From Cyanidioschyzon merolae (lineage: Eukaryota): a stretch of 64,000 nucleotides of DNA. Positions within the stretch are counted from its first letter, which is position 1. Each line of letters opens with the position of its first letter. Below are positions 6,262-51,279 of this stretch, in pieces. A program made the translations under genes and the position numbers. The notes beneath the pieces were generated by a model that was not told where the DNA came from, ran no database searches, and saw only the letters and a list, made by a program, of their open reading frames with translations. The DNA is taken from NCBI GenBank assembly GCA_000091205.1, contig AP006497.2. One strand, given 5' to 3'.

Positions 6262-7234
6262 CGCGATACGACTCGAAAGCTACTGCGTAACAGGGCAAGT
6301 ACAGAAACGAGAAGCTGTCACTGCATCCTGTGACGTGGCGCTGTTCAGGGAGCACTGCAATCAAGTCGCTTTACCGAAACTGCTGTATAGCGATGGGGGT
6401 TCTCTCGAGGCCGCTTCGCTGCATCGTTGAAGGAATAGAAGCCCCGAGGAAATCGCTTTGACAGAGAAGTCATGTGAAAACGATTGCACCAGTGAAAGCA
6501 ACTGTTATTCCTGTGTTCTGATTACAACTGCTCAAAATGAAATGGAAGCGGAGTGCGGTGTCATATCATAAAAAATGTGATGCTGGCGCTAGTCGACATC
6601 CATCCAAGCAAGCGCCAACATTGGCCTTGGTTGGTCGTTCATGATACGCTGATACGTGTTCTTTGTTTTATTTCTTTTGAACAAGGTATCCGCTCTGCAG
6701 CGAGCTGCTGGGAAGCCGCTCGGGAAACGCTCATGACAGCCTAAAGTTCTGTGTTCGGATCAAGCGAAACCTCTAGTGCAATCATCTTCGCAATGAGACG
6801 CTTGTCGGCAGGGAGCAGATGTTTACAAAGCCTCCCGTTACAATCGTGCGTTTACGAGAAGCTGCAGCGATAGCCCTGGGGGCCTCCCAGCGTCAAGAGT
6901 CCGCGCAGCATCCTCGCACGACGGCCAAGCTGGCGGTATACTCAGGTCCGAGGTCAGCGATGCTTCCTGGGACGACATTCGCAGCCGCAGCGTCCCGTAC
7001 ACCGCAAAAAGGGTATGGTTGCGTCAGAGACCTGTTCGGGATAGATTCGCTCCCCGACATACGTTCAGCGGCAGTGCTTTCTTTTGCCGAAACGGCTATG
7101 CGATAAAGCAAGCCAGCGAGCGAAAAACCATGGATACCAGTCCAGTTCAGCGCGTTCCACTCGCGACGCTCGCACGACAAGTGCGGCAACTCGGACTGGT
7201 TTGGCACTGAGCACGATTCCAACTTTTCCGGTCG

Positions 7235-8716
7235 CTAGCGGCGAGGAATTGCCCCGCTTCGACCAGACATAAGCTGCTGCATGACGCGCTGGAGGCCACC
7301 CGGACCGCTTCCCAGTTGTTGGAGCATGCGTGGGTCCATCATTCTTTGCATCTGCTGCTCCATAGCGCCTATATTGGGTATGCTGTTTGGGCCGGTACCG
7401 TGGCCAACGCCGCCGTGCCCGGGCTGCATCAGGTGCTTCATATTCTTCCCGATACGACTCCATGCCTTGCTGATCAGTTTGTATTGTGTGAGAACCTCAT
7501 CAACCTCCTGCACAGAACGACCACTACCACGAGCAATGCGACGTTTGCGTGAATCATCCCACCGCACTGAAGTACTTTCATCAAGCTCTTCCCGATTCAT
7601 GGAATCGAGAATGACGAGCATATTCCGCACTCGAGTTTGAGCGTCCTTCTCGGAGCCTTTGGGCAGTATCTCCGCCATGCCCGGCATCATGGAGGCGACT
7701 TTGCTCAGCGGCCCAAGCCGCAGCACATTCGAGTACTGCATCTGCATATCGCGCAGCGTCAGGATGCCCTGTGAAATGCGATTCATTTGCTCCTCATCGG
7801 GATTCTCCAGATCTGCCTCCGCAATGGTCGACACGAGACCACGCACGTCTCCCATGCCTAAAAGGCGTCCGACAAAACTCTGTACCTGGAACTCTTCCAA
7901 GTCGTCTAGGTGTTCGCCAGTGCCCAGGAACACGATCGGTGAATGGGTAGCGGCCACTGCGCTGAGGGCACCACCGCCACGGGCGTGGCCGTCCATCTTG
8001 GTGAGGATGACGGAACCCACTCGAACGCGCTGTTGAAACGCTCGTGCCTGGTCGTAAGCTGCCTGACCGATGGAACCGTCCATCACGAATATCACGTGAT
8101 CTGGAGTCAGCGCTCGGTCCAATTGCTCCATTTCAGCGAAGAGGGCTGCCTCCTGCTTGTGCCGTCCACTCGTATCGACCAGAATGACTTCGAAGCCCTC
8201 GCGACGGAATCTTTCGACGCCCTCGCTCGCAACCTTGACAGCGTCGGTCTCACCGTAGCGCCCATAAAAAGGAACACGTGCACGTGTTGCATTCTGTCGC
8301 AGTTGGTCGAAGGCTCCCGCTCGAAAGGTATCGGCACAAACGAGGCCGGTGCGGTATCCCTTGCGCTTGTAAAAATAGGCTACTTTGACACAGCTGGTAG
8401 TCTTGCCGTTTCCCTGGAGACCGACGAACATGATGACGTTTGATTGGCCGCGTTGTGGTCTATAGGGCGGTATGCCTGGGTCCAGCATACGACATAGCTC
8501 CTCGAAGACGGTTTTGTGGATGAGGCGGCGACGATTGGTGCCCGGCGGGAGCTCGGCTAGTCGAACGCGGTTCTTCACGCGCTGGCGCAGCTCCGAGACC
8601 TGTTTTACGTTGACATCAGCCTCGAGAAGGGCACGTGCTACCTCTTTTAGAGCTGCTTCCAAAGCTGTTTCATCTACGACGACTTGGTTGGTTAGCGACT
8701 GCAGCGCCTTGACGAT
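7235..8716 (-). CDS. SRP54: Signal recognition particle 54 kDa protein (SRP54 GTPase)
   Basis: Continuous ORF (listed 7235..8785; the likely start is MVLETLGTKIVKAL at ~8716). It has an N domain, a G domain with GLQGNGKTTSCVKVAYFYKRKG and DTSGRHKQEAALFAEMEQL, and a Met-rich M domain (MEQQMQRMMDPRMLQQLG). Confidence 0.95.
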   Translation of the reverse strand: MVKALQSLTNQVVVDETALEAALKEVARALLEADVNVKQVSELRQRVKNRVRLAELPPGTNRRRLIHKTVFEELCRMLDPGIPPYRPQRGQSNVIMFVGLQGNGKTTSCVKVAYFYKRKGYRTGLVCADTFRAGAFDQLRQNATRARVPFYGRYGETDAVKVASEGVERFRREGFEVILVDTSGRHKQEAALFAEMEQLDRALTPDHVIFVMDGSIGQAAYDQARAFQQRVRVGSVILTKMDGHARGGGALSAVAATHSPIVFLGTGEHLDDLEEFQVQSFVGRLLGMGDVRGLVSTIAEADLENPDEEQMNRISQGILTLRDMQMQYSNVLRLGPLSKVASMMPGMAEILPKGSEKDAQTRVRNMLVILDSMNREELDESTSVRWDDSRKRRIARGSGRSVQEVDEVLTQYKLISKAWSRIGKNMKHLMQPGHGGVGHGTGPNSIPNIGAMEQQMQRMMDPRMLQQLGSGPGGLQRVMQQLMSGRSGAIPRR

Positions 8717-10699
8717 TTTGGTTCCAAGTGTTTCGAGAACCATGAAGCTGTGCAGGTGGCGCCGAACCGCAACAGCCTCCAGCACTTACGGCCGTTTTTT
8801 GACCTTGGAAGGCGCACCCGCTCCAATAAAAAGTGCTGGAGGCAGCCGCTGTTCCTTGTGACAGGTGCGTGCGAAGCACCGCGTACCGCAAAAACGGAGC
8901 GTTCCCCGGTAAACGACTGACCAGGTTGAGGTTTCGGGTCTGGGTAGCTGCTGGGACGTAGCAGCGGGCCCCGGTGCGGCCTGCTGTTCAACTAGATGGG
9001 TGCGTTCATAGAATGAGCAAGTATATACTATGGTGTTCGGAAAGTATAGTTTAGTCGCAGGGGCGAACACGCCTCGCCGATCTGCGCGCCTTGCTGCCCC
9101 GCTGCGTTTGGCAGATGAGCATGGGATGCGACGCTGGTCACTCGGTTCCCGAATTTCGAGTTGTTCCACCAGCATGAGCACCGAGATGCAGACTCGATAT
9201 TCATAGAGTGGCAATCAAGGCTCACGAGCGCCCGGGTAGCTTTCGAATTCGCGGTCGTCGTTTCGGAGTGGATTCTGGGAGACGTTGCAGTTGGAATGCC
9301 TCATGGGAGCGGCATCAAAAAATGATTCGCGACACCTTTGAACAAGGGTTCGTCCAGTAACCGACTTCGCCATCCCGTTTGTACGTATACCGCTCCATGA
9401 TTCGCTTTTGCGTACGTATAGCATGCGCAAACCGCGCATTGTTCAAGTTGCAGGTCTTTTATTTCTAAGAAAACGCAAGGATGCAGCAATGCGCGCTGCT
9501 GCATTCACGAGGCGCGAAGCTCGTCGTCGTCCTTTGGCGACTTGTTCAGAAACGCATGCAGAAACTTCGTTGACCCGATCACGTTAAATACTCAATTCTA
9601 TTCGAAAGAAAAACGCTACTCCTTTCTTTGACCATCGACGCGAATGCAATCGGCGTCAACATGTTCTCGCTCATGGGACATGCTCCCAGAGGTTCGCGTC
9701 TCTTCTGTTTGCGTGGAAGTGGGTCTTGGGGTCGGACCTGATTTGCTGCAGCAATCGCCTGCAGTGGGGAGTGCGTCACTGCTTTGTACGAAGCGGTTTC
9801 GTCCGATCGAAAAGATTTCGATTGTTCTCCAGCCTGGATTCTCCTTCCTGTTCTTGTTTCATCATGGATAACATCGCCGCTCGCGAATTCTCTATCGAAT
9901 GTAAAAGCGTGCACTTGCATGTGAGCGAACAGAACACTCCCTGAGCGGATCGGCATGAAGAGGCCTCTGTTCGTGGTGTACGGCGTCAGGCGCGAAAACG
10001 GAGAAGAGCATCGGGACGACATTGTGTATCCGTCAAGGGCATGGACCGAGCAGTGCAGCAAGCATACGCGTGTGACGAGGCGGCGTTCAGAGGAGGAGAT
10101 GTGGGAGACCTACGGGAACACCTGGCAACGGACAGGTGCCATTGCTGCGACGGACATGCCCTGATCATATGCGAAGGAGACGATACCGGTTGGTGAATCG
10201 TCGATCGATCGCAACTTTCTGCTGTGTATGAACTGGGTAGAAAACAGTGGGAAGCAGCGTCATCGCGACATGAACGATGCCATCAGCATCCTTCGACCTC
10301 GTTCATCGGACCCGAGCTGGCGCGATAGACCTCGGTATGTGAAGCCGGATACCAGAGCGATGAAGTGGAAACATTTGCGGAAGAATCCCGTAAAGGCTGA
10401 CGTTGATCACAGTACGAAGAGACGCAAACTTGCGCGTGCACGCCAGAGTTCGCTACGTGGACTCCCGCCACCTTAGTCCAACACGGATATACTTGTTCAC
10501 GTCGCACAGTCCTATTACCCAACTGTATCTGCTTTCATGGTCGAGACTACCGGTCGCATACGACGCATCAGAGACCGTATCCCGCAGAACTGAAGATAGC
10601 GCTTGTGAGCGCCCGGGAAGTGTTTGCGCGCTCGACATCGCAACGCCACCGCGCGTTGCTCTGCGGTGAATCACCGAGTGTTGCGCATGATTCGATGTA

Positions 10700-13128: not shown

Positions 13129-15726
13129 TCAAAATGGAGATTCTGCACCCGATAGGGACGAGACGGCGTACATGCCTTCCAAGTCGGAGGCGCTCCACGC
13201 ATCCATGTTGGCTTCGTCGTCCTCCGCCGAGAGACGCAGATATTCGAGTGCTGCGAAGCGATCCCAGTCCGTTAGGTCGGGGACTGCCCGCTCCTGTCTC
13301 AAGAGTGATGGATCTCGACTTTCGATCGCGATGAACTTGTTCAAGTTGAACAGGATATTGAAGAAATGGCTCTGCATGCGACTGGATCGTAAAGCTGAAC
13401 GCGTGATCACCGGTGGATCAAGATCCTTGCTGATCATGTCCAGCAACTGACAGAGAATATCCTCAAATGCAACTGGTTCGTGCCCCAGACACTCCATTCG
13501 ATGCAGTTGTTCTGAATAGAGCCAATCAACATCGTACAGGGTGATCTTTCCATCGCCGTCCGCATCAATGCAGCGAAACCAATAATCCAAGGCCGTCTCT
13601 GAATTCTTGTCTTCCTCGCTGAGGATAAACCAGATGAAATCCGTATAGCTCATGTAGCCTGGGCGTGCGCAGTCGAGAGGCCTTCCTCGTCCACTAAAGA
13701 TACAGTCAATGATCCGGTAGGTCAGGGCGTGCCCGTTGTAGCGCAGCAGATCCTCGCGGTCGATCATGAGATCATGATCTGTGTCCAATTCCCAGAATCG
13801 ACAGTAAATCACGTAGAAATGCTCGTAGCTGAAACAACTACGCTCCTGGTTGATGTCCTCTTGTTCGTCGACGCTTCGAAAAATGTCCAAGAGACGATGT
13901 CGGCGGATATCCGACAGATACGCCTGCCCATTCGGCCGGTTCAGATAGTAGAATATCCGTTCGATGACTGTCTCAGCGTAGCGATGCTGGAACTCTGGGG
14001 TGGACTGCAGAAACTGTAAGCCGGGATGCGTCGCCAGCAGCGCATCAATGAAGGGTCGAAAGTCGGAACCAACAAGGTATCGGCGCTCATGTGCTTGTCG
14101 GTCGGCTCGATCCCGTTGCCCGTCGAGATTCCGCCGATTCGATGTCCATGAAGCTGCTGCAGACCTGGGCGAGATGCTGCTTCTTGGTGAGGATACGCTG
14201 TGAGCGTCGCTCTCCGTACGCTCCTCGTTCGGAACCGATGCGTGATAGTCACGGGAGCGTTGGAGTGCGTGGAAGAGGCGAGCGTGTCGATCGTAGCCGG
14301 CACAGTCCTCAACATACCATTGCAAGAATATGGACTGATGGATACGCTCACCCGTTGCCCCCGGGATGCTGATCTCCTTTGCGCCCTTCTTGTTCGTACC
14401 TTCTACCTCCGAAGCTACGTTGGACGTTTCGAAGTGCTGTTGGCGTTGGAGCAAGCGCTCGAAAATGACCAGCGAGACAAAGCTCGGCAACCCGACAATG
14501 TCCATAATGAGTTCAACGACCTCGCGCTGGCTCAGTGCTCCGTCTTGGCAATCAAAAGCGGCCTGTATGGCCTGTTGTTCTTCTGCAGCCCGGATGACGT
14601 GTTCGTGCGCGCGCCCATCTGGATAGTAGAAGCGCGGGATCGTCTCCGCCTTTGCGAATGCGCACTCTGATGGTACAAAGAGCGCATTCACCGCTGAACG
14701 CTTGTTCAGACCTCCTGAATGGAGCGCATTTCGCTGGTGTGCTGTCTCCTCACATGCAGGTAATGGTGGCGAGAACGATGCTCCATTCTCAGTCGAAGAG
14801 CCATCGTGGCCTACTCCCGAGTCCATATATGATGCGATCTCATGGCAACGCTCCTCGGTATCGGATTGACCATGTGCCATCGCCGCATCGCTATCCTCAA
14901 CTTCGGACCAGATCCTAAAAACCTCATACTTTCTGATGAAATGTGATACTGGCGACTGTGGGCTCGACGTCAAAGAAGCTTCCTCTGTGGAGCTACTCCG
15001 TGAACGGCCTTGCCTTGCAACGCGTGCTTCGCCACCAGCGGGCGAGCCCGGAGTTTGGCTCAAGATGCGATAGAAGGCGCTGCGCGCCGCTCCGGCCGGG
15101 GAGTTTGGCGTAATGGTATCGGCATTCGTCGGACGCTTTGCGGTTGCCCCGTGCGATGCAGCATTACACGAAGCTGTCGGGCTCGAAAGTCGTTCCTGGC
15201 GGAGCATGGTAGGCTTCGGTGAACCAGCAGTCACAAGATCTTCGTCGGTCACCCTTCCCGTGACGTCCAGTTTCCCCAGGACCTGCTCCAACCAAGCGAG
15301 CGTTTCCGGGAGAAACAACCAACGCATAAAGAGGTACTCTAAGTGCCGTTTCGGCTCTAGCGCAATATCCGTGGCCGATAGCGTCACCAGCAGTTTTGGT
15401 GCGTCCATGGTGCCGGAAATCGCGTGCACACCGGACTCGTCGCCCCCGGTAACAAACACAGCTGTAACCTCTATACCAGACTCTATGGTCTGCTCAGAGG
15501 ACATTATTGAAGCGTTCCTACGTAGATCACTCGAGCTGCTGCAGCTCAGCGGAGTCAGGCCGGGGAGATGTGTGCCAAGCCTCACCCGCTTGCGTCTCAA
15601 GACACGAGGCGAGACTGGAACGCACCTTTCAACTTTACAACCATCGCCAGAAGCCGTTCGAAAGTCGAACGACGTCGGGCGTGTACAGTAGTGGCGGCGA
15701 ACGCGCCCTAGACAAATCGTCTCCAA
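13129..15726 (-). CDS. Protein phosphatase 2A regulatory subunit B'' (PR72/PR130-like, EF-hand)
   Basis: ORF of 865 aa. The C-terminal half matches the B'' family: DIFRSVDEQED, FSYEHFYVIYCRFWELDTDHDLMIDREDLLRYNGHALTYRIIDCIFSG, YWFRCIDADGDGKITLYDVDWLYSEQLHRMECLGHEPVAFEDILCQLLDMI. The true start is possibly the internal MSSEQTIESG (~15507), because the first 12 codons overlap the outer end of the inverted repeat. Confidence 0.85.
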   Translation of the reverse strand: METICLGRVRRHYCTRPTSFDFRTASGDGCKVERCVPVSPRVLRRKRVRLGTHLPGLTPLSCSSSSDLRRNASIMSSEQTIESGIEVTAVFVTGGDESGVHAISGTMDAPKLLVTLSATDIALEPKRHLEYLFMRWLFLPETLAWLEQVLGKLDVTGRVTDEDLVTAGSPKPTMLRQERLSSPTASCNAASHGATAKRPTNADTITPNSPAGAARSAFYRILSQTPGSPAGGEARVARQGRSRSSSTEEASLTSSPQSPVSHFIRKYEVFRIWSEVEDSDAAMAHGQSDTEERCHEIASYMDSGVGHDGSSTENGASFSPPLPACEETAHQRNALHSGGLNKRSAVNALFVPSECAFAKAETIPRFYYPDGRAHEHVIRAAEEQQAIQAAFDCQDGALSQREVVELIMDIVGLPSFVSLVIFERLLQRQQHFETSNVASEVEGTNKKGAKEISIPGATGERIHQSIFLQWYVEDCAGYDRHARLFHALQRSRDYHASVPNEERTESDAHSVSSPRSSISPRSAAASWTSNRRNLDGQRDRADRQAHERRYLVGSDFRPFIDALLATHPGLQFLQSTPEFQHRYAETVIERIFYYLNRPNGQAYLSDIRRHRLLDIFRSVDEQEDINQERSCFSYEHFYVIYCRFWELDTDHDLMIDREDLLRYNGHALTYRIIDCIFSGRGRPLDCARPGYMSYTDFIWFILSEEDKNSETALDYWFRCIDADGDGKITLYDVDWLYSEQLHRMECLGHEPVAFEDILCQLLDMISKDLDPPVITRSALRSSRMQSHFFNILFNLNKFIAIESRDPSLLRQERAVPDLTDWDRFAALEYLRLSAEDDEANMDAWSASDLEGMYAVSSLSGAESPF

Positions 15727-18195
15727 TTGCTGTGTAGACGCCTTCCCGTCTTTTTGGAGCGGCCGCCAACTACTGCTTCCAACTTTTTCTCATATAGTTC
15801 GACCTTGAGAGGTTGTCCAACAAAGTTCACTCTTGTCAACGCTGGAGGTCTCGTCTCCAGCGCCGCACATCTCCTTATATTGATGGCGGCGTTAAAGTCT
15901 CGGTTCACAAACTCCATACGTTTCGTGCCATCACTGGTTGTACTTACTGATGCAAGCAATCCTCGAACTTTCGCTCTCCTTTCCATTTGCCCTTCCGGCA
16001 GCGCTCCGTACTTTTTCGTATCCTTAGGGCTCCGCTGGCACTTTTCCATCTCCACCCTCTGGAGTGTACACCCCAGTTCATGGTGTGTATACGATGTTCG
16101 AAACTCATCTACAGGTATTGTTTCAAAACGCCGTGCGCGCTCCCTCTACGTTCTCGTCGTTGGAGCTGGCGTCGTCCTTTTTGGGTCTTCCATCGGCCTG
16201 CTCCGTACGCTACTATGAGCCTCTGACTTTTATCCTCCTTCAAGTCACTCAACTGATTGAGAAAGTTCGCGAACGCACGCTGCATCCCACCGTAGAGATT
16301 CATTCGCAAACGAGCCCACCGGGGCTTGGTATACTCCTCCCACAGCGCATCCCAATGGGCAACACGAACTTCCATGAATTTCCGAAAAGCATCAAGGTCC
16401 GCTCCTCGGCTCGTCACCTCGCTCATAGCTTCCAGGTGATCCTTCATTCCTGAATTCCATGTAACGATTTTCTTCCTCGCATTCACTATACCGGATTCTC
16501 GATAGTATCTCGCTCTCGAGAACCTCAACAGACGCATGTCTTTCTGACGAAAGTTGCCGTCAGCACCATCTTCCGCACGCTTGGGAGCAGCGATGGTGAT
16601 GATATTCGTGTTTCCGGGGTCCGCGCCAAGGACAAAGTCGTTATCCTGCACTTTCTGCATCGCAGGATCCGCCTCCTACTTTTCTTCATGCTTTGCCGCG
16701 TCAGCGACAAAGTCGTTATCCTGTACCTCCAGCGTCTCAGGATCCGCCTCCTTCCCATCTTCATCCTTCGTCACGTCAACGTTAAAGTCGTTATCCTGCA
16801 CTTTCTGCATCGTAGGACCCGCCTTCTTCTCATCTTCATGCTTCGTCACGTCAACGACAAGGTCGTTATGCTCCACCTCCTGCGTCGCAGGACCCGCCTC
16901 CTTCTTTGCTTCATCCTTCGTCACGGGCGCAGCCGAGGGCGGAACTGGCCGATCTTTCCTCAATGCCGATAGTGTACACAGATGGCTACTCCATCGGTTT
17001 CGATCAACCCAGTGAGTACCTTTTGTTTGCTGACTTTGAGAAGTTTGAAATTGAAGATATTCTTCCGGTACGCCTCCTGGTTTTCACCGGAGAACTCCTC
17101 CCTGCGAACATTGAACTCCAGACTGATCTCCTTCATAATGCCGTGAAGGATTCTGGAGTGGATGGACACAAAATCTGACCTTATGTTGCACATTGGAACC
17201 ACGTTGAAGCGCTTCCCCATTAGGAACGCCTTCCGTCTCTCCCGCTCTTCATTTCTTTCCTCACTCAGCTTCATCTCCGCTTTGCGTTCGAGCTCTCGGT
17301 CCAGAAACACGAAATATCGCAGGATGAGGCGATAATATCTTTCCTTATCTTTTTTCAACGCTGATATCTTTTCTGCTGGATTCGCCAGCCCCAAGACTGC
17401 ACAGTGCTCTTGTATAGCCGTACGGATTACAGAATCCTCATTCGTGCTCTCGTTTGACGCCTTCTTGTCAACGAATTCGATCTCATCTTCATGCTAGCGA
17501 TCTTTCGTGATGGCATCGATAATCGCCCATATTCCATTGCGAGATAGGCCCGGGTAGCGTGCAAACACGGCGCGTATCATGAAACGTTCGAGGTTCATAG
17601 TCAAATGCTTCTTCAGGTTCGTGAGCTACTTCATCGCCCCATAGTCGTAAATATTCGAGTCACCCTTGTATCGAGTACCATTGAATCTGTAAAAGGGATG
17701 TTTTTCGTGGAGGGTATGCACTAGCACATTTTCCTTCCGCGCTTTCTCTTTACGAAGCATCAGGTGTTGAATAAACGTCTTATCGATGGACTCGTCCGGA
17801 ATCTCGACCGTTTCGATCTGCGTCACGTCGCGATACATCTCTCTCGCCAAATGCATCAGTCCTGACGAAGCCTTGACAAGACTCTTGGAGTACGAGTCGA
17901 CACGGTTTTCGATTGCGTCTCGCAACTTTTCCCTGTACGGATCCTTGATATGTCCAAGAAGAATGGTTGTCGCCACCTTCTCGACGTACAGCCGTCTTTC
18001 TTGCCGCCTTCGACGTAGGGCCTCTCCCTTTAGGTCCTTCTTCGCTTCCTTGTCTTCTGGACTCGGCACAGTTTTCGTTTTTTTCTGGTAGTCGGCGACA
18101 CTGAGCCTCCAGGATCGTCGGCTTGCTGTTTCATAGCTTTTTTGTTTCTTTGAAAAACAACGCTCTTTGAAGGCTTCTGTTACATACAGCGACAA
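15708..18195 (-). CDS. TnpB/Fanzor-like RuvC-fold nuclease, copy 1. It has the same 4-segment structure (17626-18195, 16960-17394, 16109-16963, 15708-16055), plus 3 extra in-frame 25-aa repeat units before RuvC-I
   Basis: The ADPGNTNII motif has its Asp at ~16619-16621. The [10 protein letters not shown] motif has its Asp at 15897-15899. Segment translations are ~98% identical to copy 2. The same TAG codons and frameshift positions are present. Confidence 0.65.
16625..16925 (-). repeat. 4 tandem units of 75 bp, in frame, encoding 25-aa repeats ([25 protein letters not shown] and variants) just upstream of the RuvC-I motif of nuclease copy 1; copy 2 has a single unit (23871-23945)
   Basis: Minus-strand ORF 16676..16963 shows [25 protein letters not shown] / [25 protein letters not shown] / [25 protein letters not shown] / AAKHEEK...[18 protein letters not shown]. 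Confidence 0.85.
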
Positions 18196-18399
18196 AACGC
18201 TTGACTAGACTTGTTTGAGGTTTGAACCACAAATGAATTAGAAAACTACACTTTGCTACGACCTGAACGGATATCCAATGTTTTACAGCTGAACAACACG
18301 TTACTGATGCCCACGACAGGGACCTTTACCACAATGAACGGAGGGGCGGAGGCAGTAGCAGCAGAAAATATTGACGATAATTCTGAGTAGTTATCCGCT

Positions 18400-21300
18400 G
18401 CTCCCGAAACAACGCTGCAGCTTCGGGCGCAAAATCTGGGTCCATCCTCGAGCTCGGGCTCAGTTTTACCTCCTTCTTCGGTTTCTACCTCAACTCTGGA
18501 AACAATCTCGGCGGATATTTTGGAAGACGGCTGGCGGTATGTTCGCGTTCGAAGCTGGAACGAACGACTTGCCCGCCTATGTGTTTGGGGAGCGGATACA
18601 AAGCCGCTGAAAGGTTGGTTCGTAGAGTATCCCCAGTGGTTGAGGGGAGCTTCATGTGTCCGGCAAGATAAAGGTCGCATTCGAGTCGACCTTGACTAAT
18701 GTACATCTGATTCTACGCTAGTGCGGCGCCAAGCACTCAATGAACGACTGGAATGCGGGAGGCGCTGGTGGCATGTACGCTCACACACCCCGTGGAGGGT
18801 GCATCTAAATTGACGACGTATCTCTGGAGTACCGCAGCGCTATTCCTATTCCGTTACGCGCTACAAATCGGTAGGTATTGCATCATGGAATATTTGTGGT
18901 GTAGCCTCGAAACTAGAATAAGAGATATCGAATTACTAGTAGAGTAAAGAGGATCAGATACAACTGAAGGACTCTACAAAAGGAAAAGCGATCCAACGAG
19001 ATACGGAGAAGGAGACACAGGAACCTCATGATCCACCTAGATGCAAAATAACCAGAGAAAGCAGCTCAGGAAAGAGCCCGAAGAAGAAGAAGACCAACAA
19101 GAAAAGACAGAAGAATAGAGAGAAGAACTCCCAAGCGAGCCCATCATGAGTGATCCCCCGAAAGAGCACCCCAGCAGGAACTCAAGAAAGCCGTCGCCAA
19201 ACCGAGTCACCTACTCACAGCGCTGAAGATCCGAAAAGCCGTGCGTACAAATCTTTAGACCAATTGGCACGCGAGTTTGTAGATGGGAATCAGAAGACTG
19301 CCAGAGAACTGGGACGGCTGGCACCAGAACGCAACAGTTGGAAACCGCAGTACCTGAAACGACGTATCAAAACTCGGATTGATGAATGCCACCGACTCAA
19401 TAAGATCCTCAACCGCACCGCCATACGCGCCAACGCCGGAGACAAGGAAGCGAAGGCAGCGCTACCGGCGCTACAGGCGCAACATGAGGAAGCTATCAAA
19501 AGAAAGAAGAAACTTTCCAGAGAAGACAAACGAGAGGATCGAAACCGCAAAATCGCCTCTCTGATGGAATCTACGCTAGAGAGCACCAACGAAGATGAGA
19601 CCTGGCGCTATATTCGATCGAGACTCGACCCACCGAAAAGTGCTTGGGGCTCACACCAACTGTTAAAAAGAAGAGCTGAGGACGGAGAGTGCCTCAGTGA
19701 ATGAGGCCTGGATAGACCACGGGAGAGAGCTGCATGAAGACGCAACTGGGAACTGCCAAGACCGAATCTATTGGCATCAGTATGCTGCAGAACTACCGCG
19801 CCTCAACCCGGTACCGGAATGGAACGACCCAATCTTCTGGCCTGAATCTGTTCGGACCCTGCTATGCTCAAGCAACCGCAAAACACCTGGCATCGACGGT
19901 ATCGCGACGGAGTGGATGAAACTGGCGACCCCAAAAGACGGGACAACAGGGACACCATCGATACCAGATGAACCTGACACAATCTTAGGCAAACGCCCTC
20001 TGGAGCTCATCCAACGCATGTTTGAAGAAGCATACATCCCTGATGTATGTAGGAGTGTTGAGGTCGTATCGATCCTCAAAAAGGACTCCCACATACACAG
20101 ACATGAACAACTACCGGACTATTCGCCTCATCCCGTCAATCATGAAGCTACTTTGCGCCATGCTCACGAACCGGATCCAGAGGGGCCTCGAGGAGCGCAA
20201 GTTCTTCGCTTCAGAACAGGCTGGATTCCGGAGTCGCGAGGAGTGCATGAGCCATGTCCTGACCCTCATCGGAGTGGCGCAACGTCGCTCCATTAGCGAC
20301 CAACAACCAGCTTACGTATGCTTCATCGACTTTCAAAAGGCCTTTGACACGGTCCCGCACGAGGCTCCATTTCTCAAGATGGAACGCGCCGGAGTCTCCG
20401 AAAAGTGCTTGGCGTTCTTCAGTGCGCTCTATGCAGACTCGTGGATGCGCATCCGACTGGGCGACAGCTCAAGAACCCCTTCCAGAAGAATCCGCCGTGG
20501 ACTGCGACAGGGCGACCGCGCATCCCCGCTCCTTTTCAACATCTTCATCAACGATCTGCTGAACAACGGCAGACAATTCGTGGCTGAGGCGCCGTGGATA
20601 GACTGTGGAGATGTCCGGTGAGGAGCCCTCAGATAGGAACCGCCTCGCAGGCCTTCTATTCGCGGACGATGTCGTGCTGTTGGCACCCACCCCGGAAACG
20701 CTTGCGGCTAGCATGGAACAAGTCAGCGCCTGGACCGATCGCTGGGAGATGAGCATAGGAGCATCGAAGTGCGGCGTCATGGTCATCCATGGAGACTCGC
20801 AGAGCATTCGCAATCGCTCGTGGCGGTTGCAGAATCAGGAAATTCCGGTCGTGGAAAAATATCGCTACCTGGGGGTCGGTCTCATGCTGACGCTCGACGA
20901 AAAGGCACACATCGACGAGATGATCGCCAAGATGCATAGAGGTACAGCGATCGCACGCCCATTCCTATCCGATCCCTCTATCTGCATAGCAATCCGTACG
21001 AGGGCACTAAGGATGTGTATCATCCAGCCTGCGACCTGGGGTGCTGAATTGTGCGGCATAAAGCACAAAAATGCCTCGCGTCTGCAGACAGCCGCCAACA
21101 GGGCAATGCGACTCGTTCGTGTTGGATGCTCAGTGCAGAGCAGAGCAACCAACCCGTTGACACTCGGACCTGAACTCCAAACACCATCGACAGAGGCGAT
21201 AGCAGCAGGCTTCCAGGCACGTGTGTGGGCCAAAGGGCCCATCATGCGCACCTGGTTCAGTCGGAGTTTCATGCAGACCCCAACGCACTCCAAGAAATCT

Positions 21301-22400
21301 TGGATGGAATCGACGCAGATTTGGTTGGAGCGCCACTTAGGCGAAAACACGCTCCCCAATCATTCCCCAGGAATATAGAAGGCTCCCGCCGCCTCTAGCG
21401 AACGGTCCGAACAACCATATGGGAATTTAGACAAGGTACCAGTCGCGCAAGTAACGCCGGCTTGACCCTATCCGGAACTACACCCTAGCATACACATGCA
21501 AGTACTGGTAGGGGGTGCTGGAATTCCCGGGACTTGCTCGAGGTACCCAGTGGCTCGCCAAAATCCGCGTTGGTGGCTTCCGGCTGGCAGCACCGGCTCT
21601 AAGCCGGAAAGGAGCACTGGAATCGCACTGGGAATCACACTGTCCCTGCTGTGGAGACGAGAGCCCCCGAGAAGCTGACGCATTTACTGTTACAGTGCCC
21701 GCGCTAGAATCAGGAGCGCAGCGAGCTCCTTGAAGGACAGCAGCAGCTGGGCATCAGCGTGATAGTGGAAGGCCGGACACTCATTCTGAGTGTAGCACTG
21801 GCAACTGATGGTCCGCTAACCGAGCCGCAGCGCTCGTTAGTGGCGAACAAACTCACATTCTACCTTCTAAGCGGCAGGTCCAACGAATCGGATGAGCACA
21901 CGGGTTTAGTGCTCTTTGTGCCTGCCTACTGGCGGGTGTCAAGCACAAACCCGCATTGCCGACCGACAACACATTCAATGCATGATCACGAAGGAGAGAG
22001 GCGGCTCCCAGGATTCATCCTAACAGCCAAGTTTCTCCAGCGTGTCGTGCAGCGAAGGTAAGACTGCATTTGCAGACTCGCTGAGCATATATCGACGAAG
22101 AGACCCGATTCTACGTCGGGTGAACCACGCCTCGAGCCGACGCCCTCTGTGGTATAGCAACGCCGTTCTGTCTCTATGAGCTATCTGCTCCAGCATTTAA
22201 GGTGCAAAGGCGAATACGGAGCGGCAGCTACTAGGCACACACGATAGGACGTATGAAACGACCAGAATATCTGAGATGAAGCATAGGTAATCTAACTTGG
22301 AGGCAGGTGCTTCATCATGGACGCTTTCCCGAAAGCCATTATCCATTCCAAATTCTGGGATCCATGGTCAATGGAAACGTCTTGTCAATAACAAAAAAAC
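18400..22400 (+). mobile_element. Degenerate, probably 5'-truncated non-LTR retrotransposon (LINE, L1/CR1-like RT) occupying the centre of the palindrome
   Basis: RT motifs lie in three different frames: KTPGIDGIATEWMK (19697..20296), YRTIRLIPSIMKLL...QAGFRSREE...FIDFQKAFDTVPHE...GLRQGDRASPLLFNIFINDL (20022..20621), LLFADDVVLLA (20605..21378). A C-terminal Cys/His motif HCPCCGDES...H is at ~21640-21700. An A-rich tail-like stretch aataacaaaaaaacaaa is at ~22385-22400. No endonuclease domain is recognisable upstream. Confidence 0.8.
19697..21378 (+). pseudogene. LINE reverse transcriptase ORF2 remnant with at least two frameshifts
   Basis: RT domains 0-7 are spread over ORFs 19697..20296, 20022..20621 and 20605..21378 in different frames. 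Confidence 0.8.
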
Positions 22401-22482
22401 AAATTGCGCTCGGTGGGCGCACCTCGGAGATCGGGAAGTCAACTGACACGACGCGCATGCCGCCGTAGAAGGGTAACGCGAT

Positions 22483-24880
22483 TGGGATCAGTAACGTGTT
22501 GTTCAGCTGTAAAACATTGGATATCCGTTCAGGTCGTAGCAAAGTGTAGTTTTCTAATTCATTTGTGGTTCAAACCTCAAACAAGTCTAGTCAAGCGTTT
22601 TGTCGCTGTATGTAACAGAAGCCTTCAAAGAGCGTTGTTTTTCAAAGAAACAAAAAAGCTATGAAACAGCAAGCCGACGATCCTGGAGGCTCAGTGTCGC
22701 CGACTACCAGAAAAAAACGAAAACTGTGCCGGGTCCAGAAGACAAGGAATCGAAGAAGGACCTAAAGGGAGAGGCCCTACGTCGAAGGCGGCAAGAAAGA
22801 CGGCTGTACGACGAGAAGGTGGCGACAACCATTCTTCTTGGACATATCAAGGATCCGTACAGGGAAAAGTTGCGAGACGCAATCGAAAACCGTGTCGACT
22901 CGTACTCCAAGAGTCTTGTCAAGGCTTCGTCAGGACTGATGCATTTGGCGAGAGAGATGTATCGCGACGTGACGCAGATCGAAACGGTCGAGATTCCGGA
23001 CGAGTCCATCGATAAGACGTTTATTCAACACCTGATGCTTCGTAAAGAGAAAGCGCGGAAGGAAAATGTGCTAGTGCATACCCTCCACGAAAAACATCCC
23101 TTTTACAGATTCAATGGTACTCGATACAAGGGTGACTCGAATATTTACGACTATGGGGCGATGAAGTAGCTCACGAACCTGAAGAACCATTTGACTATGA
23201 ACCTCGAACGTTTCATGATACGCGCCGTGTTTGCACGCTACCCGGGCCTATCTCGCAATGGAATATGGGCGATTATCGATGCCATCACGAAAGATCGCTA
23301 GCATGAAGATGAGATCGAATTCGTTGACAAGAAGGCGTCAAACGAGAGCACGAATGAGGATTCTGTAATCCGTACGGCTATACAAGAGCACTGTGCAGTC
23401 TTGGGGCTGGCGAATCCAGCAGAAAAGATATCAGCGTTGGAAAAAGATAAGGAAAGATATTATCGCCTCATCCTGCGATATTTCGTGTTTCTGGACCGAG
23501 AGCTCGAACGGAAAGCGGAGATGAAGCTGAGTGAGGAAAGAAATGAAGAGCGGGAGAGACGGAAGGCGTTCCCAATGGGGAAGCGCTTCAACGTGGCTCC
23601 AATGTGCAACATAAGGTCAGATTTTGTGTCCATCCACTCCAGAATCCTTCACGGCATTATGAAGGAGATCAGTCTGGAGTTCAATGTTCGCAGGGAGGAG
23701 TTCTCCGGTGAAAACCAGGAGGCGTACCGGAAGAATATCTTCAATTTCAAACTTCTCAAAGTCAGCAAACAAAAGGTATTCACTGGGTTGATCGAAATCG
23801 ATGGAGTAGCCATCTGTGTACACTATCGGCATTGAGGAAAGATCGGCCAGTTCCGCCCTCGGCTGCGCCCGTGACGAAGGATGAAGCAAAGAAGGAGGCG
23901 GGTCCTGCGACGCAGGAGGTGGAGCATAACGACCTTGTCGTTGACGCGGACCCCGGAAACACGAATATCATCACCATCGCTGCTCCCAAGCGTGCGGAAG
24001 ATGGTGCTGACGGCAACTTTCGTCAGAAAGACATGTGTCTGTTGAGGTTCTCGAGAGCGAGGTACTGCCGAGAATCCGGTATAGTAAATGCGAGGAAGAA
24101 AATCGTTACATGGAATTCAGGAATGAAGGATCACCTGGAAGCTATGAGCGAGGTGACGAGCCGAGGAGCGGACCTTGATGCTTTTCGGAAATTCATGGAA
24201 GTTCGTGTTGCCCATTGGGATGCGCTGTGGGAGGAGTATACCAAGCCCCGGTGGGCTCGTTTGCGAATGAATCTCTACGGTGGGATGCAGCGTGCGTTCG
24301 CGAACTTTCTCAATCAGTTGAGTGACTTGAAGGAGGATAAAAGTCAGAGGCTCATAGTAGCGTACGGAGCAGGCCGATGGAAGACCCAAAAAGGACGACG
24401 CCAGCTCCAACGACGAGAACGTAGAGGGAGCGCGCACGGCGTTTTGAAACAATACCTGTAGATGAGTTTCGAACATCGTATACACACCATGAACTGGGGT
24501 GTACACTCCAGAGGGTGGAGATGGAAAAGTGCCAGCGGAGCCCTGAGGATACGAAAAAGTACGGAGCGCTGCCGGAAGGGCAAATGGAAAGGAGAGCGAA
24601 AGTTCGAGGATTGCTTGCATCAGTAAGTACAACCAGTGATGGCACGAAACGTATGGAGTTTGTGAACCGAGACTTTAACGCCGCCATCAATATAAGGAGA
24701 TGTGCGGTGCTGGAGACGAGACCTCCAGCGTTGACAAGAGTGAACTTTGTTGGACAACCTCTCAAAGTCGAACTATATGAGAAAAAGTTGGAAGCAGTAG
24801 TTGGCGGCCGCTCCAAAAAGACGGGAAGGCGTCTACACAGCAGTTGGAGACGATTTGTCTAGGGCGCGTTCGCCGCCACC
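22483..24880. repeat. Right arm of the large inverted repeat (contains nuclease copy 2 on the plus strand)
   Basis: Reverse-complement match to 15690-18310, read directly. Confidence 0.9.
22600..24862 (+). CDS. TnpB/Fanzor-like RuvC-fold nuclease, copy 2. The reading frame is split into 4 ORF segments (22600-23169, 23401-23835, 23832-24461, 24515-24862; ~657 aa total), so it is either an intron-containing gene or a pseudogene
   Basis: A RuvC-I-like motif [16 protein letters not shown] has its Asp at 23949-23951. A RuvC-III-like motif [15 protein letters not shown] has its Asp at 24671-24673; D-x-N-A-A-x-N-I is the TnpB/Cas12/Fanzor signature. The RuvC-II region reads [12 protein letters not shown] (no Glu), as reported for Fanzor1-type proteins. 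No CxxC...CxxC zinc ribbon is seen. Segments 1-2 are joined in frame through two TAG codons (23167, ~23296). Segments 2-3 differ by a frameshift. Segments 3-4 could be joined by a 56-nt GT..AG intron (24458-24513). A basic NLS-like stretch RRRRQERR lies near the N-terminus. There is no in-frame ATG at the N-terminal end. Confidence 0.65.
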
Positions 24881-25163
24881 GCTGAAAACTGCGGGAAGCA
24901 ACGTCTTTCTTTTGAAAGAGGTTTGTTGTTGCTGGTGGCGGTTGTGCATCTTTATATCCTGGATCGTGTCAGCGATCTCACACGGTACAAAAGTTGAAGG
25001 GGTGCAACACACGTACAGCTTCTCTGTCTGGGCACGTGCAACGCTCGAATCCTGGCGGCGCTCTCGAGACTGATAGAGAAAGCCCGCTTGTGAGGTATGC
25101 TCGGCGCTTGTTTGATTCGCGCTCTTACCCTGCGCAGGAAGCCGTGAACAAAATACTGCTGGC

Positions 25164-30084: not shown

Positions 30085-30548
30085 GTTCACATTCCGCTGA
30101 TAAAGCGCTTTGCTGAGTACGAGACGTTCTCGTGATGAGAGCGCAGCCCCGGTGCTTGTCTCTCGCAGTGATCACGCCCATGGCAGAGCACTGGGAACCC
30201 CCGCATTGCACTCATAAAGCGCTTTGCTGAGTACGAGACGTTCTCGTGATGAGAGCGCAGCCCCGGTGCTTGTCTCTCGCAGTGATCACGCCCATGGCAG
30301 AGCACTGGGAACCCCCGCATTGCACTCATAAAGCGCTTTGCTGAGTACGAGACGTTCTCGTGATGAGAGCGCAGCCCCGGTGCTTGTCTCTCGCAGTGAT
30401 CACGCCCATGGCAGAGCACTGGGAACCCCCGCATTCCACTCATAACGCGCTTTGCTGAGTACGAGACGTTCTCGTGATGAGAGCGCAGCCCCGGTGCTTG
30501 TCTCTCGCAGTGATCACGCCCATGGCAGAGCACTAGGAACCGGAACGA
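30085..30548. repeat. Tandem repeat, 4 copies of a 114-115 bp unit
   Basis: The unit ...aaagcgctttgctgagtacgagacgttctcgtgatgagagcgcagccccggtgcttgtctctcgcagtgatcacgcccatggcagagcactgggaacccccgcattgcactcat recurs at 30102, 30216, 30330 and 30444. Read on the minus strand (ORF 30087..30770) it encodes 38-aa repeats. Confidence 0.95.
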
Positions 30549-31900
30549 GTGCGTGCACTGCGATTCAGCTTGAGAATGAGGAGATCCTCGATACCATGTG
30601 CTAAACGAATACCTGGTGGACAGCAAATATCCCGACCATATCGCCGCTCTTCGAGTTGCATACGCGCCACACTGATTGCTAAAAACGGAGGCGGTATCAC
30701 GTCGCGCTCCACGAACACATCGATGGCTCGTACGATCCAGTTCACGAACCCGAGTTGAAGGTCGGTGCATTCCTCCAGATCGGTCGGACGAACTGGCAGC
30801 CGCATTCGAAAGCCACGGGGGTGCAGTACACCCGATACATCAACGGCATAAAAACCCGCATGAATAGGCAGCATGTTCACCGGATCGATTTGGAGCTGTC
30901 GTAGAACAGCCCGATAACAGTGGTCGATCGGTTGTGCTGATCCGTTTTGCACAGCGCTTAATGCCGCTTCATCAGTGTAAACAATGAGGTTATAGAGTGG
31001 TCCGCAAAACGTCAGTGAGTTACGTCGATTCCGAGCGCAGCGGTGGTAAACATGCAGGTCCGCATAGAGCGGCTCCAACGGCACACTAAGATAGATGTCA
31101 GGCTGTTGATAGCGTTGAATCACCGCAGGGATCATGGTTTTCGAGTGTCTGTTTCGGGACCTTGCCGAGCTGGCACGGTTCGGTCGCAGCATCCCCGTCA
31201 GGCTAGTGAGTGCGGGGTGTAGAGGCGCCAACCACTGAGGCCCCGGTGACTGCTCCACTGCTGCAGACGCTTTCTGCACAGTCGCTGCCTGAGCTGCCTG
31301 CCGGTGCTGTTGGTTGCGTAGGCCCCAGCGCGACTCTTGGAGTGATCTAGCAACGCGACTGGCAACCTGAGGCTGCACGCGAGCCGAGGCTAGCGCCGCT
31401 CGTTGCACAGCGATCCAGCCCTGCATGTGCCTCTCGGAACAACCGGCGTTTGTTGAGCTATACCAACAGCTGGACGTGAAACTCAAACTTCGAAACTGAA
31501 GTATAAACGCTCTGAAAGAAAACAACGCCAACGCTGCAGCGGCAGGTGCGCTGTCGTCTCTCGGAACACTGAAACCGATGATTGTATGCCGCTGAATGCC
31601 ATGGTTGTGGGCAAAGCAGCGAATTCTGGAGAACCTGTACCAGAACACCCTATTTATCTTGGTTTCCCCAAAGGCATGGAACAAAGGGAAAGTATCGAGT
31701 AGAGTGGAGACAAGTCCCGCAACGTCTGTGTGCTGTGCCTGCTGGCATGACCTGTACCAGAACACGCTATTTATCTTGGTTTCCCCAAAGGCATGGAACA
31801 AAGGGAAAGTATCGAGTAGAGTGGAGACAAGTCCCGCAACGACTGTGTGCTGTGCCTGCTGGCATGAAGGAGAACGGCATGACGTGTCGGTGTCAGTCAC
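30533..31900 (-). CDS. Hypothetical 455-aa ORF whose N-terminus is built from the 117-bp repeats; C-terminal ~200 aa are globular-looking but the family was not recognised
   Basis: A long ORF in GC-rich DNA. The C-terminal segment ...PIDHCYRAVLRQLQIDPVNMLPIHAGFYAVDVSGVLHPRGFRMRLPVRPTDLEECTDLQLGFVNWIVRAIDVFVERD... has mixed composition, suggesting a real domain. Confidence 0.35.
   Translation of the reverse strand: MTDTDTSCRSPSCQQAQHTVVAGLVSTLLDTFPLFHAFGETKINSVFWYRSCQQAQHTDVAGLVSTLLDTFPLFHAFGETKINRVFWYRFSRIRCFAHNHGIQRHTIIGFSVPRDDSAPAAAALALFSFRAFILQFRSLSFTSSCWYSSTNAGCSERHMQGWIAVQRAALASARVQPQVASRVARSLQESRWGLRNQQHRQAAQAATVQKASAAVEQSPGPQWLAPLHPALTSLTGMLRPNRASSARSRNRHSKTMIPAVIQRYQQPDIYLSVPLEPLYADLHVYHRCARNRRNSLTFCGPLYNLIVYTDEAALSAVQNGSAQPIDHCYRAVLRQLQIDPVNMLPIHAGFYAVDVSGVLHPRGFRMRLPVRPTDLEECTDLQLGFVNWIVRAIDVFVERDVIPPPFLAISVARMQLEERRYGRDICCPPGIRLAHGIEDLLILKLNRSARTRSGS
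31634..31867. repeat. Tandem repeat, 2 copies of a 117-bp unit
   Basis: cctgtaccagaaca...ctgctggcatga recurs at 31634 and 31751. It is ORF-preserving in both the + (31596..32006) and - (30533..31900) frames. Confidence 0.9.
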
Positions 31901-32700: not shown

Positions 32701-35247
32701 ATCCAGTTAAGCCACTGATCGTACGAGTTCGGGACCTAGGGATGCCAATTCTCCACAATTCTCTGGTTTGCTTCCAGCAAACCTTCAATACGGCAACACA
32801 GCTAATGCTCGGGACTGAAGAGGCTGCACAGATTGTACATAGGATCCGGGATGTACACATCCGCGTCCCAGAATACCATGACACGTTGCCGCAGCACGTC
32901 GGCGATGCGAGCATCCAAAGCGCGGGTACCGAACCTTGTCTGACGAACATCGAAAAAGAACATCTCCATATGCAGATCATTGTCGTGAAGTTCATGCAGC
33001 GCAGCAGCTGAGCGTTGTGCCCACAAATTCGTGGTCCGGTAAAATGCGAAGTGATGCACATGATTCTTGGGATGTTGATAGAGGCAAGTGATCGGCTGGT
33101 GCCACAAGACATCGAGGTGATTGCGAGCTCAGACGAGATGCCGCAACGAGATCCAGAGACGCTTCAGGTCGTTCATGCTTATGATGGTGCTCTGTTTCTC
33201 GGACTGTTGGATGTCGCATGCAGATATCGTTGGAAATGTGATGTGTTCGTGCATTCCTTGCTACCTGCACTCCCGTGTTTTCCTGAAGCGAACGCTCCAG
33301 AGCAAGGAATGCTCCATGTCACTGCAACCCGGGCGCTCTCGCCTCCTCAAAGCTTGAGGACGATATGGTCCCCATGAGTCACATCTACGCCAAAGATATT
33401 ACCATGGACAATTGGATAGCGTACTTTACGGCCTGTTCAGGGAGCGACGGCTTGTCTCTGGCAGCAAACGTAGAGGAGTATTCCGACAACATCGCCTGGA
33501 GCGTTGGCGGAGCCTTTGCAAGGTGTCTCGTTTACAGGGAAGAAACGGAAAGAAGCCGATCAGACAATCGAGATCAACGGAATATCCATTTGTATGCAAT
33601 TCTTGGAACCTTTGCCTGAAGCGAGCGGCTACAATCGATTGCAACCTTTCGTGTAGATGAAGCTCAGGACTTTGTGGTACACGTGGATGCCGGGTCGAAA
33701 GCCGTCATCGTCATCGCCACGCGTCTCGATCAGGAGCGCGGATCCAAACGCCTGATCGGGAGCATGGACGACGCTGCAAAACTATTCGAAGGCTCTTTAC
33801 GATAGCGAGAAGGCCACGCTGGAGGCCAGGATGCGTACCAGCAGGTCGAAGGACGGGATCAGGACCCGTTCGACGCGCTGAGCACCGCATCGAGCCGATG
33901 AGGATGCTATTTACGCAGTACTCAGAGCGTCCGTGAGCATCCAGATGCTTTATGAAGACGAGTTTTGACAGGCGTGTATGTCAGATCGCGCTGGAGTCGC
34001 CAATTGTTCTGATTGGATGGAGACAAGAACATGCTTTAGCCAATTGCATGAATGAGTTGGAAAAGTGACTCGCCGACAAATCGCGTCTATCACTGGTAAC
34101 CTATGGTGCTAGACGTGCCGTAGCGCGCAAAGGCTGCCCGTTTCCCATGATGAACCGAGCGTACAACGAGTGCAGGTATTGATCCTGAGCGATTCCCATC
34201 GATGCGCTCGAGGCGGCATATGCGCACCACGACCATGAACGCATGTGGAATCTGGTAGAAGGAACCAGTGTGAAGCAGATTCGGATGCACTATCTGGTGT
34301 CCGGGAAGCGGACCGGACGCCAGATACCGAAGTGATCGAAGATGAGAGGCTTGCTGTGCTGCGATTCCACGAGCAACAACGCACTTTCTGAACCCAGACC
34401 TGAATGCCTCCATCACCAATACGAAACGTGTCGTGCTTGCAGGGCGTCCGCCGGCCTTGTATCGATCGATGCTTCGAGGTGATCGCTTCGTACTCAATGT
34501 TAGCGTTGTGCTAAAAAGGCTGAAGGCTTCTGATGGGTAAAAATCAATAGCCAGGAGGCCGAGCATTGGAATCTCGAAAGGAGTACGGCATTGGCAGGGC
34601 ACGGTTCAGCAATTCAAAAACGCCAAAAGCGTGGTATATATGCGACAGGAACACTTTCAGCCTGGGCAATCAATGACCAATTGATGAGCTTCATGAATTG
34701 ATGTTGCTGAGTACACGAAACTCGCCATCGACGAAGGTTGATGGCGTTACGTCTCGATCGCAGTGATGAAGGCGTAGCAAACAATGGGGAACAACGAGTA
34801 TTCCCATGCATTTACGGGAAGTAGTCTCCGAGCACGCGGTAGCAGCTTGGGGCGGAAAGATGCCCCGCTTGGTGACCAGCCAGTCACTCGGTCTGTCAGC
34901 CAGACAGCCGGTGCCATGAGGTATCTTGCCGACAGGTGTCTAGCCCGCCATCCATGCTCGTATCCCTTTCAACTACAACGTTCTAGAATTCGCCAGTACC
35001 GTCCACGCTTTGTCACGAACGGCTGTCGCGGACGCCGCCTATGGTGTGTCCAGTTCCTGCCTAACGTTTTCGAATCAATCGGATGCTCGCTAATTTCGTG
35101 CGGCGAAAGAGTCACGCCCCTTGTCGTTGCAGCACAGGCACGCCATCCCCAGCCGCTGATGACCGAATGCAGGGTCAAACGAGCCTTCGCGTGCCTGCAT
35201 ACAGCGCCTGGAAGAGCGGGACGCCGGCACGCGGATGTGCTGACGCA

Positions 35248-51253: not shown

Positions 51254-51270
51254 GAGTGTGTGTGTGTGTG
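51254..51270. repeat. (TG)n microsatellite
   Basis: gtgtgtgtgtgtgtgtg read directly. Confidence 0.9.
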
Positions 51271-51279
51271 TGCAGTCAA

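Follow-up and report, generated by a model that had tools for sequence, protein, structure and literature searches.

The 64,000-nt stretch of Cyanidioschyzon merolae DNA analyzed here (contig AP006497.2, assembly GCA_000091205.1; hereafter, the window) carries an inverted repeat with arms at 15691-18311 and 22484-24879, and each arm contains a TnpB/Fanzor-like nuclease gene, the sequence 3' of which is our main subject. The arms are ~99% identical outside one tandem-repeat expansion, in which copy 1 has an extra 225 bp, or three extra 75-nt units, relative to copy 2; 22 substitutions separate the two copies. As an earlier first-pass annotation had noted, both genes face outward, with TAG stop codons at 24860-24862 on the plus strand (copy 2) and at 15708-15710 on the minus strand (copy 1). 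Comparison of an intron-less SRP54 gene at 7235-8785, which is 88% identical to its counterpart in Cyanidiococcus yangmingshanensis, 87% identical to the next match, and 67% identical to that of Cyanidium, identifies the host as a Cyanidiales red alga.

The conceptual protein is ~754 amino acids (aa) long and has recognizable RuvC motifs, the D/E/D motifs included. A library-wide HMMER search returned 1485 relatives, and 75 of them were used to broaden the profile that was matched against solved structures. This wider-family profile matches the Fanzor1 structures from Parasitella (9cf0; E = 9.7e-21), Spizellomyces (8gkh; E = 9.3e-12), and Guillardia (9cer; E = 4.2e-7), and therefore the nuclease genes of the window belong, by profile comparison, to Fanzor1. 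Only the broadened profile succeeded: searches of PDB with protein P0001 directly and with a close-family profile gave zero matches. Pfam returned sub-threshold matches of the Cas12f1-like TNB type and nothing stronger, and an AlphaFold model built from a shallow alignment had a pLDDT of 33 and was unusable. A 75-nt (25-aa) in-frame tandem repeat lies at 16624-16923 and 23870-23949, immediately N-terminal of the RuvC-I motif; copy 1 exceeds copy 2 by three units, homologues P0001 and P0008 have other numbers, and the repeat unit resembles the strand running into the catalytic aspartate (…DNDLVVDA…).

Both gene copies in the window (copy 2 at 22600-24862 on the plus strand) are pseudogenes that share identical lesions, namely, three in-frame TAG codons and two frameshifts. 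The premature TAG codons of copy 2 are at 23167, 23299, and 24422, with mirror sites in copy 1. The fact that all three internal stops are TAG led us to consider codon reassignment, which we rejected because the homologues carry Y, K, and Y at these sites and because frameshifts are present as well; we judge the lesions to be ordinary decay and not recoding.

Near-identity between the arms stops at 24879 and 15691, 17 nt beyond each stop codon. The first-pass annotation had located this limit almost exactly (~16 bp past the stops, at 24878 and 15692) and had taken it for the end of the transposon. To place the limit in the context of the whole family, related loci were collected by a metagenome scan with the C-terminal 155 aa, which gave 78 loci out of >456 matches, all from JGI metagenomes. 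In these 78 loci, similarity past the stop codon persists for 68 to 78 nt and then drops to background (majority-base fraction, 0.3 to 0.4). BLAST alignments of window positions 24560-25000 to the same loci fall into two populations, one ending at 24879 and the other reaching 24924-24938. Similarity among loci terminates after a short G/T-rich tail (…GGTG) of variable length, and the flank beyond it differs at every locus; the outer flanks of both window copies are single-copy sequence. The family-level 3' ends are thus at ~24937 for copy 2, a boundary (24937/24938) in common with loci L037, L076, L069, and L077, which carry the same hairpin variant (variant B, described below), and at ~15640 for copy 1. 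The element therefore continues another 58 and 51 nt beyond the end of arm identity, and these last 58 and 51 nt of the two copies are still homologous (~59%).

At the other end, the 5' boundary of copy 2 (22403-22406) is common to >20 loci. The element begins ATCGCGCTC (ATCGCG), and the 5' end of the Fanzor unit carries a conserved hairpin, GCGCTC-GGT-GRGCGC, at 22406-22420. At the family level, copy 2 accordingly spans 22403-24937 on the plus strand, and copy 1, which is 5' truncated by ~80 bp, spans 15640-18311 on the minus strand, with unique flank beyond its 3' boundary. Sequences upstream of the start of the Fanzor unit (22403-22460) fall into at least three repeated classes. Degenerate Fanzor-like fragments are also present in the window at 47468-47716 (plus strand), 51238-51651 (minus strand), and 34027-34546 (plus strand), and the 3' module is found in none of them. 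The first two, which lie on opposite strands and encode adjacent, slightly overlapping parts of the protein, had been cited as losing similarity right after the stop codon; in fact, similarity in the 47.7-kb fragment is lost ~25 to 30 nt before the would-be stop, and the 51.3-kb fragment does not extend as far as the stop.

The early end of arm identity is explained by the different variants of the second hairpin of the 3' module that the two copies carry. An identity tract that ends inside homologous, diverged sequence, together with the shared lesions and an arm start (22484) that lies inside the unit beginning at 22403, points to gene conversion or recent exchange. On this sequence evidence, the near-identity of the arms most likely arose when two older head-to-head copies underwent gene conversion or some comparable recent exchange, and the exchanged tract most likely ended at 24879 and 15691, inside the 3' module. 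We also considered whether the arms could be the long terminal repeats of a single large transposon that includes the reverse transcriptase gene lying between them. This idea was rejected since each arm lies inside an older Fanzor unit extending beyond the arm, and it is further undercut by the central reverse transcriptase element having its own ends, common to other loci.

Paired and serial arrangements of Fanzor copies also occur elsewhere in the family. Head-to-head Fanzor fragments with outward 3' modules were seen in L035/L039 (5585-5943 on the minus strand and 6163-6528 on the plus strand), and a further head-to-head pair was seen in L052 (2499-2801 on the minus strand and 4160-4479 on the plus strand). 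Direct tandem copies, 3.1 to 3.9 kb apart, are present in many loci. In L005, L049, and L060, a 5' module appears to be inserted 8 to 18 nt after the 3' module of another copy; we did not count these as independent events, as they are at least partly one duplicated composite.

The 3' module is 68 to 75 nt long and sits entirely downstream of the stop codon, at 24863-24937 in copy 2 and at 15707-15640 in copy 1. All loci have GGCGCGgTTGCCGCCAC-TACTGTACAC after the stop codon, with a long hairpin coming next. Nearly all copies folded have the same layout, consisting of stem-loop 1 (SL1; GGCG…CGCC, 4 to 6 pairs), ~9 to 12 unpaired nucleotides (CACUACUGUAC), and a long stem-loop 2 (SL2). At the base of SL2, an ACACC box pairs with the GGUG tail that closes the element. 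Of the two main versions of this hairpin, the SL2 core has the form GTCGTTCGA-CTT-TCGAACGGC in variant A, which is present in copy 1, and AACGTYTTTC-TTTT-GAAAGRCGTT in variant B, which is present in copy 2. The distal part of SL2 exists in at least five sequence versions, all of which form hairpins.

In copy 2, SL1 occupies 24863-24877 on the plus strand (conserved stem, with helix 1 of the covariance model described below 76% paired), the linker occupies 24878-24889 (ACCGCTGAAAAC, compared with the family consensus ACTACTGTACAC), and SL2 occupies 24890-24937, with the apical stem formed by AACGTCTTTC and GAAAGAGGTT and the base paired with the element-ending GGTG tail. The module of copy 1 (15640-15707, minus strand) comprises SL1 at 15707-15693, the linker at 15692-15684, and SL2 of variant A at 15683-15642. 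The covariance-model score is 77.9 bits for copy 1 (E = 7e-18) and 30.1 bits for copy 2, the lower score being due to the ~4 substitutions in the copy 2 linker.

Several other features of the module were recorded in individual copies. Further stem 2 versions of unrelated sequence follow the conserved linker in L043 (2371-2440, a perfect 15-bp GC stem), L079 (1193-1262), L065 (729-803), and L019 (926-988). Comparison of L011 (590-775) with L025 (6365-6550) reveals, in one metagenome version of the locus, a 49-nt tandem duplication of the 3' strand of SL1, the linker, and SL2, which places two scaffolds in series. The linker contains a palindrome, TGTACA, in the 24883-24889 region of the family consensus (GTGTACAC in many copies), and a GGTGTACAC motif is also conserved within the open reading frame (ORF) at 24498-24507, ~360 nt upstream. 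Long-range or intermolecular pairing is conceivable.

Conservation within the module is uneven. SL1 stem positions are 90 to 100% conserved across 45 copies, and the SL1 stems and linker together are ~90% conserved, like codon positions 1 and 2 upstream, with variation in the SL1 loop and distal SL2. A structured sense-strand module immediately behind the stop codon could be an ordinary 3' untranslated region element of the Fanzor mRNA, acting in 3'-end formation or stability without any guiding. We regard this explanation as very unlikely, as SL1 and the linker are as conserved as coding sequence even where the ORF has been destroyed, at every locus the module and the repeat unit end together, and the layout matches that of the guide RNA scaffold of the Spizellomyces Fanzor1 protein, SpuFz1 (discussed below).

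Folding statistics indicate that the module is structured on the sense strand. The sense strands of 48 non-redundant copies fold with a mean energy of −29.3 kcal/mol, versus −22.4 kcal/mol for the antisense strands; the sense strand is the more stable one in 44 of the 48 (P = 5e-9), and the median folding z score is −1.9 versus −0.33 for the adjacent coding sequence. Folded singly, copy 1 reaches −29.0 kcal/mol (z = −2.43) and copy 2 reaches −26.5 kcal/mol (z = −1.7); further examples are L044 (−33.7 kcal/mol, z = −4.9), L051 (−38.8 kcal/mol, z = −5.7), and L043 with its unrelated 15-bp GC stem (−41.7 kcal/mol, z = −3.8). G·U pairs account for 18% of the pairs in the module. Among non-Watson-Crick cells, G·U exceeds A·C by 236 to 50, the pattern predicted for folding of the sense strand.

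Pairing is maintained across copies when the variants are kept in register. RNAalifold found no consensus structure in a plain MAFFT alignment mixing all variants, which are out of register with one another, and per-variant alignment, per-copy folding, and a covariance model were therefore used. In a MAFFT-only alignment of 21 variant A copies, 79.5% of the cells pair, versus 31 to 53% with slid partners. The covariance model built from this alignment found 84 instances, all 84 on the sense strand and each beginning at a Fanzor stop codon, including 24860-24940 (plus strand) and 15710-15635 (minus strand) in the window. In 61 distinct sequences aligned to the model, 78% of the cells pair, versus 35 to 54% in slid controls. 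Of 25 pairs, 14 changed on both sides (a number reached by 3 of 500 shuffles), double changes occurred in 50 cells (0 of 500 shuffles), and the covariation score was 0.137 (0 of 500 shuffles), with the caveat that this alignment is partly model fitted and that the copies are related, so that shared ancestry inflates the shuffle statistics. No Rfam family matched the module at the gathering threshold or at E values up to 10.

These results bear directly on the model put forward in the first-pass annotation, in which the guide RNA scaffold would occupy the final ~150 bp of the ORF, ending at 24879 and 15691, and positions 24879-24900 would be unique flank supplying the guide. The stop of arm identity at 24879 and 15691 and the folding of window positions 24680-24900 taken alone (z = −2.0) agree with that model, which we nevertheless find barely credible. 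Almost no consensus structure is seen in the final ~100 nt of the ORF (coding control, z = −0.33). Family conservation runs 51 to 58 nt further than the model allows, and, in alignments with other copies, positions 24879-24900 fall on the conserved linker and the 5' strand of stem 2; since conservation continues past 24879, these bases are scaffold. What holds of the original proposal is that a structured candidate noncoding RNA occurs at the 3' end of the nuclease gene, as a conserved, strand-specific module that lies inside the interval flagged and ends with the repeat family; its placement and boundaries had to be redrawn.

We consider it probable that the module following each stop codon (24863-24937 on the plus strand and 15707-15640 on the minus strand) represents the omega-RNA scaffold of a Cyanidiales Fanzor1 transposable element. 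Several hallmarks of an omega-RNA are present: the module lies 3' of the Fanzor gene and on the same strand, the scaffold end is the right end of the element, and the flank is locus specific. From the observed location, family boundary, conservation pattern, strand bias, and maintained pairing, we infer that the module would be transcribed, bound by protein, and used to present a guide. In active members of the family, the sense transcript would fold into the short conserved SL1, the single-stranded conserved linker, and the long SL2, and the Fanzor1 protein would bind SL1 and the linker. The RNA would run ~15 nt into the flanking host DNA, and this extension would serve as a guide directing DNA cleavage beside the element. 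By analogy with SpuFz1, whose guide is 14 to 15 nt long (PMC10432273), the candidate guide positions are 24938-24952 on the plus strand for copy 2 (GCGGTTGTGCATCTT, the first unique flank) and 15625-15639 on the minus strand for copy 1 (TGTAAAGTTGAAAGG, also unique flank); a guide, if any, would thus begin at ~24938 in copy 2 or at ~15639, reading downward, in copy 1. Neither candidate guide has a second match within the window.

A number of observations weigh against the omega-RNA interpretation, in addition to the alignment caveats given above for covariation and for RNAalifold. None of the fetched copies contains a full ORF ending at the canonical stop, and thus no working partner protein was found among them; since both window genes are broken as well and the copy 2 linker is mutated, the two loci are best read as relics and are probably decayed remains of a once-active system and not working units. 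SL1 has 4 to 6 pairs here, compared with the 7 reported for three Fanzor1 omega-RNAs of solved structure. A search for terminal inverted repeats linking the 5' and 3' ends of the element found none; the start of SL1 matches the reverse-complemented 5' end at 7/9 positions, but this match was dropped because it did not track across copies. The left flanks form several repeated classes without a common short motif, and no target-adjacent motif could be defined from them. Furthermore, the strand bias would be the same for a hairpin of single-stranded DNA formed by this strand.

The last point leads to an explanation at the DNA level, in which the module would be purely a transposon end, that is, a single-stranded subterminal hairpin recognized by a transposase of the HUH or another type, as in IS200/IS605-like elements or Helitrons, with no RNA role. 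Such an end would be in keeping with the lack of terminal inverted repeats, both here and in the published C. merolae element discussed below (PMC3627910), with the conserved hairpin at the 5' end as well (GCGCTC-GGT-GAGCGC), with a strand bias that a strand-specific single-stranded DNA mechanism predicts equally, and with the frequency of tandem and head-to-head arrangements. We nonetheless consider a purely DNA-level role unlikely: the 2.5-kb unit contains no transposase gene, its ends break the Helitron rules (5' ATCGCG instead of TC and 3' GGTG instead of CTRR), the 18% of pairs that are G·U would be weak in DNA, and the two-stem layout with a linker and the 75-nt size match a known omega-RNA. 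In OMEGA systems, DNA-end and RNA roles coexist, and the two explanations are therefore not mutually exclusive. It is possible, although we would rate it as a long shot, that both roles are combined in a eukaryotic counterpart of the IS200/IS605-type single-strand transposons, with the 3' module acting as omega-RNA scaffold and as the DNA end for mobility and the distal part of stem 2 swapped as a cassette. Such cassette exchange would account for the sharp change at 24879 from one variant to the other (A or B).

Between the two Fanzor copies lies a LINE-like reverse transcriptase element (18306-22402, plus strand), with matches to RVT_1 at 20022-20618 (E = 1.8e-19) and 20605-21375. This element is frameshifted, and its 5' end at 18306 is common to five other loci. 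The A-rich 3' end of the reverse transcriptase element lies directly against the Fanzor 5' end at 22403, a junction repeated in L016 and L074, suggesting either that a composite was copied as a unit or that one element targets the end of the other. This proximity raises the question of whether the module is a 3' recognition signal for the neighboring reverse transcriptase, with the Fanzor unit mobilized as RNA in the manner of a SINE or HAL1. Besides the repeated junction, the many copies that are 5'-truncated fragments and the short, G/T-rich 3' tail of variable length fit this scenario. It is highly improbable, however, since the LINE 3' end (…GTCAATAACAAAAAAACAA) is unlike the Fanzor 3' module, with no covariance-model match there, and the sharp 5' boundary at 22403 in >20 loci is unlike random 5' truncation.

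Other repeats in the window are unrelated to the Fanzor module. Near-perfect tandem repeats of 114 and 117 nt in a 455-aa ORF without a Pfam match, and a long acidic low-complexity coding repeat, were noted over the intervals 30090-30541, 31633-31866, and 49470-50050.

Overall, the favored omega-RNA interpretation provides a concrete model for a Fanzor1 family from thermo-acidophilic red algae, specifying boundaries, two stems, a conserved linker, and a guide start. The analysis also illustrates that the end of a local block of near-identity can mislead as to the end of a transposon and that placing the guide requires the family to be compared as a whole. If an intact copy were found or reconstructed, a compact-scaffold Fanzor1 of hot-spring origin could be of interest for genome editing. 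The biology is otherwise as the field would expect of a Fanzor locus.

Among known systems, Helitrons begin with 5' TC, end with 3' CTRR preceded by a hairpin 10 to 12 nt before the 3' end, and insert between A and T, and Fanzor1 genes are known Helitron passengers. The present elements resemble Helitrons in having a subterminal hairpin near the 3' end and Helitron2 in also having a 5' hairpin. They differ from both in that the 5' end is ATCGCGCTC and not TC or T and the 3' end is …GGTG and not CTRR, the 3' hairpin is much longer and is preceded by the conserved SL1 and linker, and a RepHel gene is lacking. IS200/IS605-like elements have subterminal hairpins and a Y1 transposase and insert 3' of a fixed 4- to 5-nt motif; no fixed motif of this type was found in the flanks examined. 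TnpB scaffolds usually reach into the 3' end of the gene and include a pseudoknot. The likeness to the TnpB omega-RNAs of IS200/IS605 elements lies in a putative scaffold that comes from the right end of the element on the nuclease strand, with a guide that would be read from the flank, and in ends that bear hairpins on both sides without terminal inverted repeats. The differences are that the coding part here lacks conserved structure, the unit contains no TnpA-like transposase, and Rfam gave no match.

Another known system is CMe-1A, a Fanzor1 element of ~3 kb and of unknown class, present in C. merolae in ~150 copies that are ~80% alike (Bao and Jurka 2013, PMC3627910). CMe-1A has no inverted repeats, and its 5' 635 bp are common to another repeat (PMC3627910). 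The present family likewise has a Cyanidioschyzon-type host, a Fanzor1 gene, a unit of ~2.5 to 3 kb, many copies that are ~80 to 87% alike, no terminal inverted repeats, and, in some copies, a separate repeated 5' module (~650 to 690 bp); one upstream class of ~690 bp (L008, 3250-3943) may be the TE-N2_CMe-like 5' module of CMe-1A. The family resembles CMe-1A in a comparison with the published description. The CMe-1A paper precedes the discovery of omega-RNA and describes no 3' RNA module (PMC3627910), and no omega-RNA for a CMe-1A-type family was described in the literature searched.

For the module itself, the closest comparison is with the omega-RNA of SpuFz1 (PDB 8gkh), which has a 75-nt scaffold consisting of SL1, a 6-nt linker, and a long stem 2 (Saito et al. 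2023, PMC10432273). The distal part of this stem 2 makes no protein contact and can be deleted, and a 14- to 15-nt guide from the flank follows (PMC10432273). Across Fanzor1 omega-RNAs, SL1 is the constant element and the region past SL1 is unconstrained (Xu et al., PMC11423790). The candidate algal module has no sequence similarity to the SpuFz1 scaffold and has a linker of 9 to 12 nt rather than 6, and the 30-nt terminal inverted repeats and the CA/TA left-flank motif of SpuFz1 were not found. What the two have in common is a noncoding module of ~75 nt that fills the interval from the Fanzor1 stop codon to the element's right end, the order of parts from SL1 through a short linker to a long stem 2 with a variable distal part, and locus-specific sequence beyond the family boundary.

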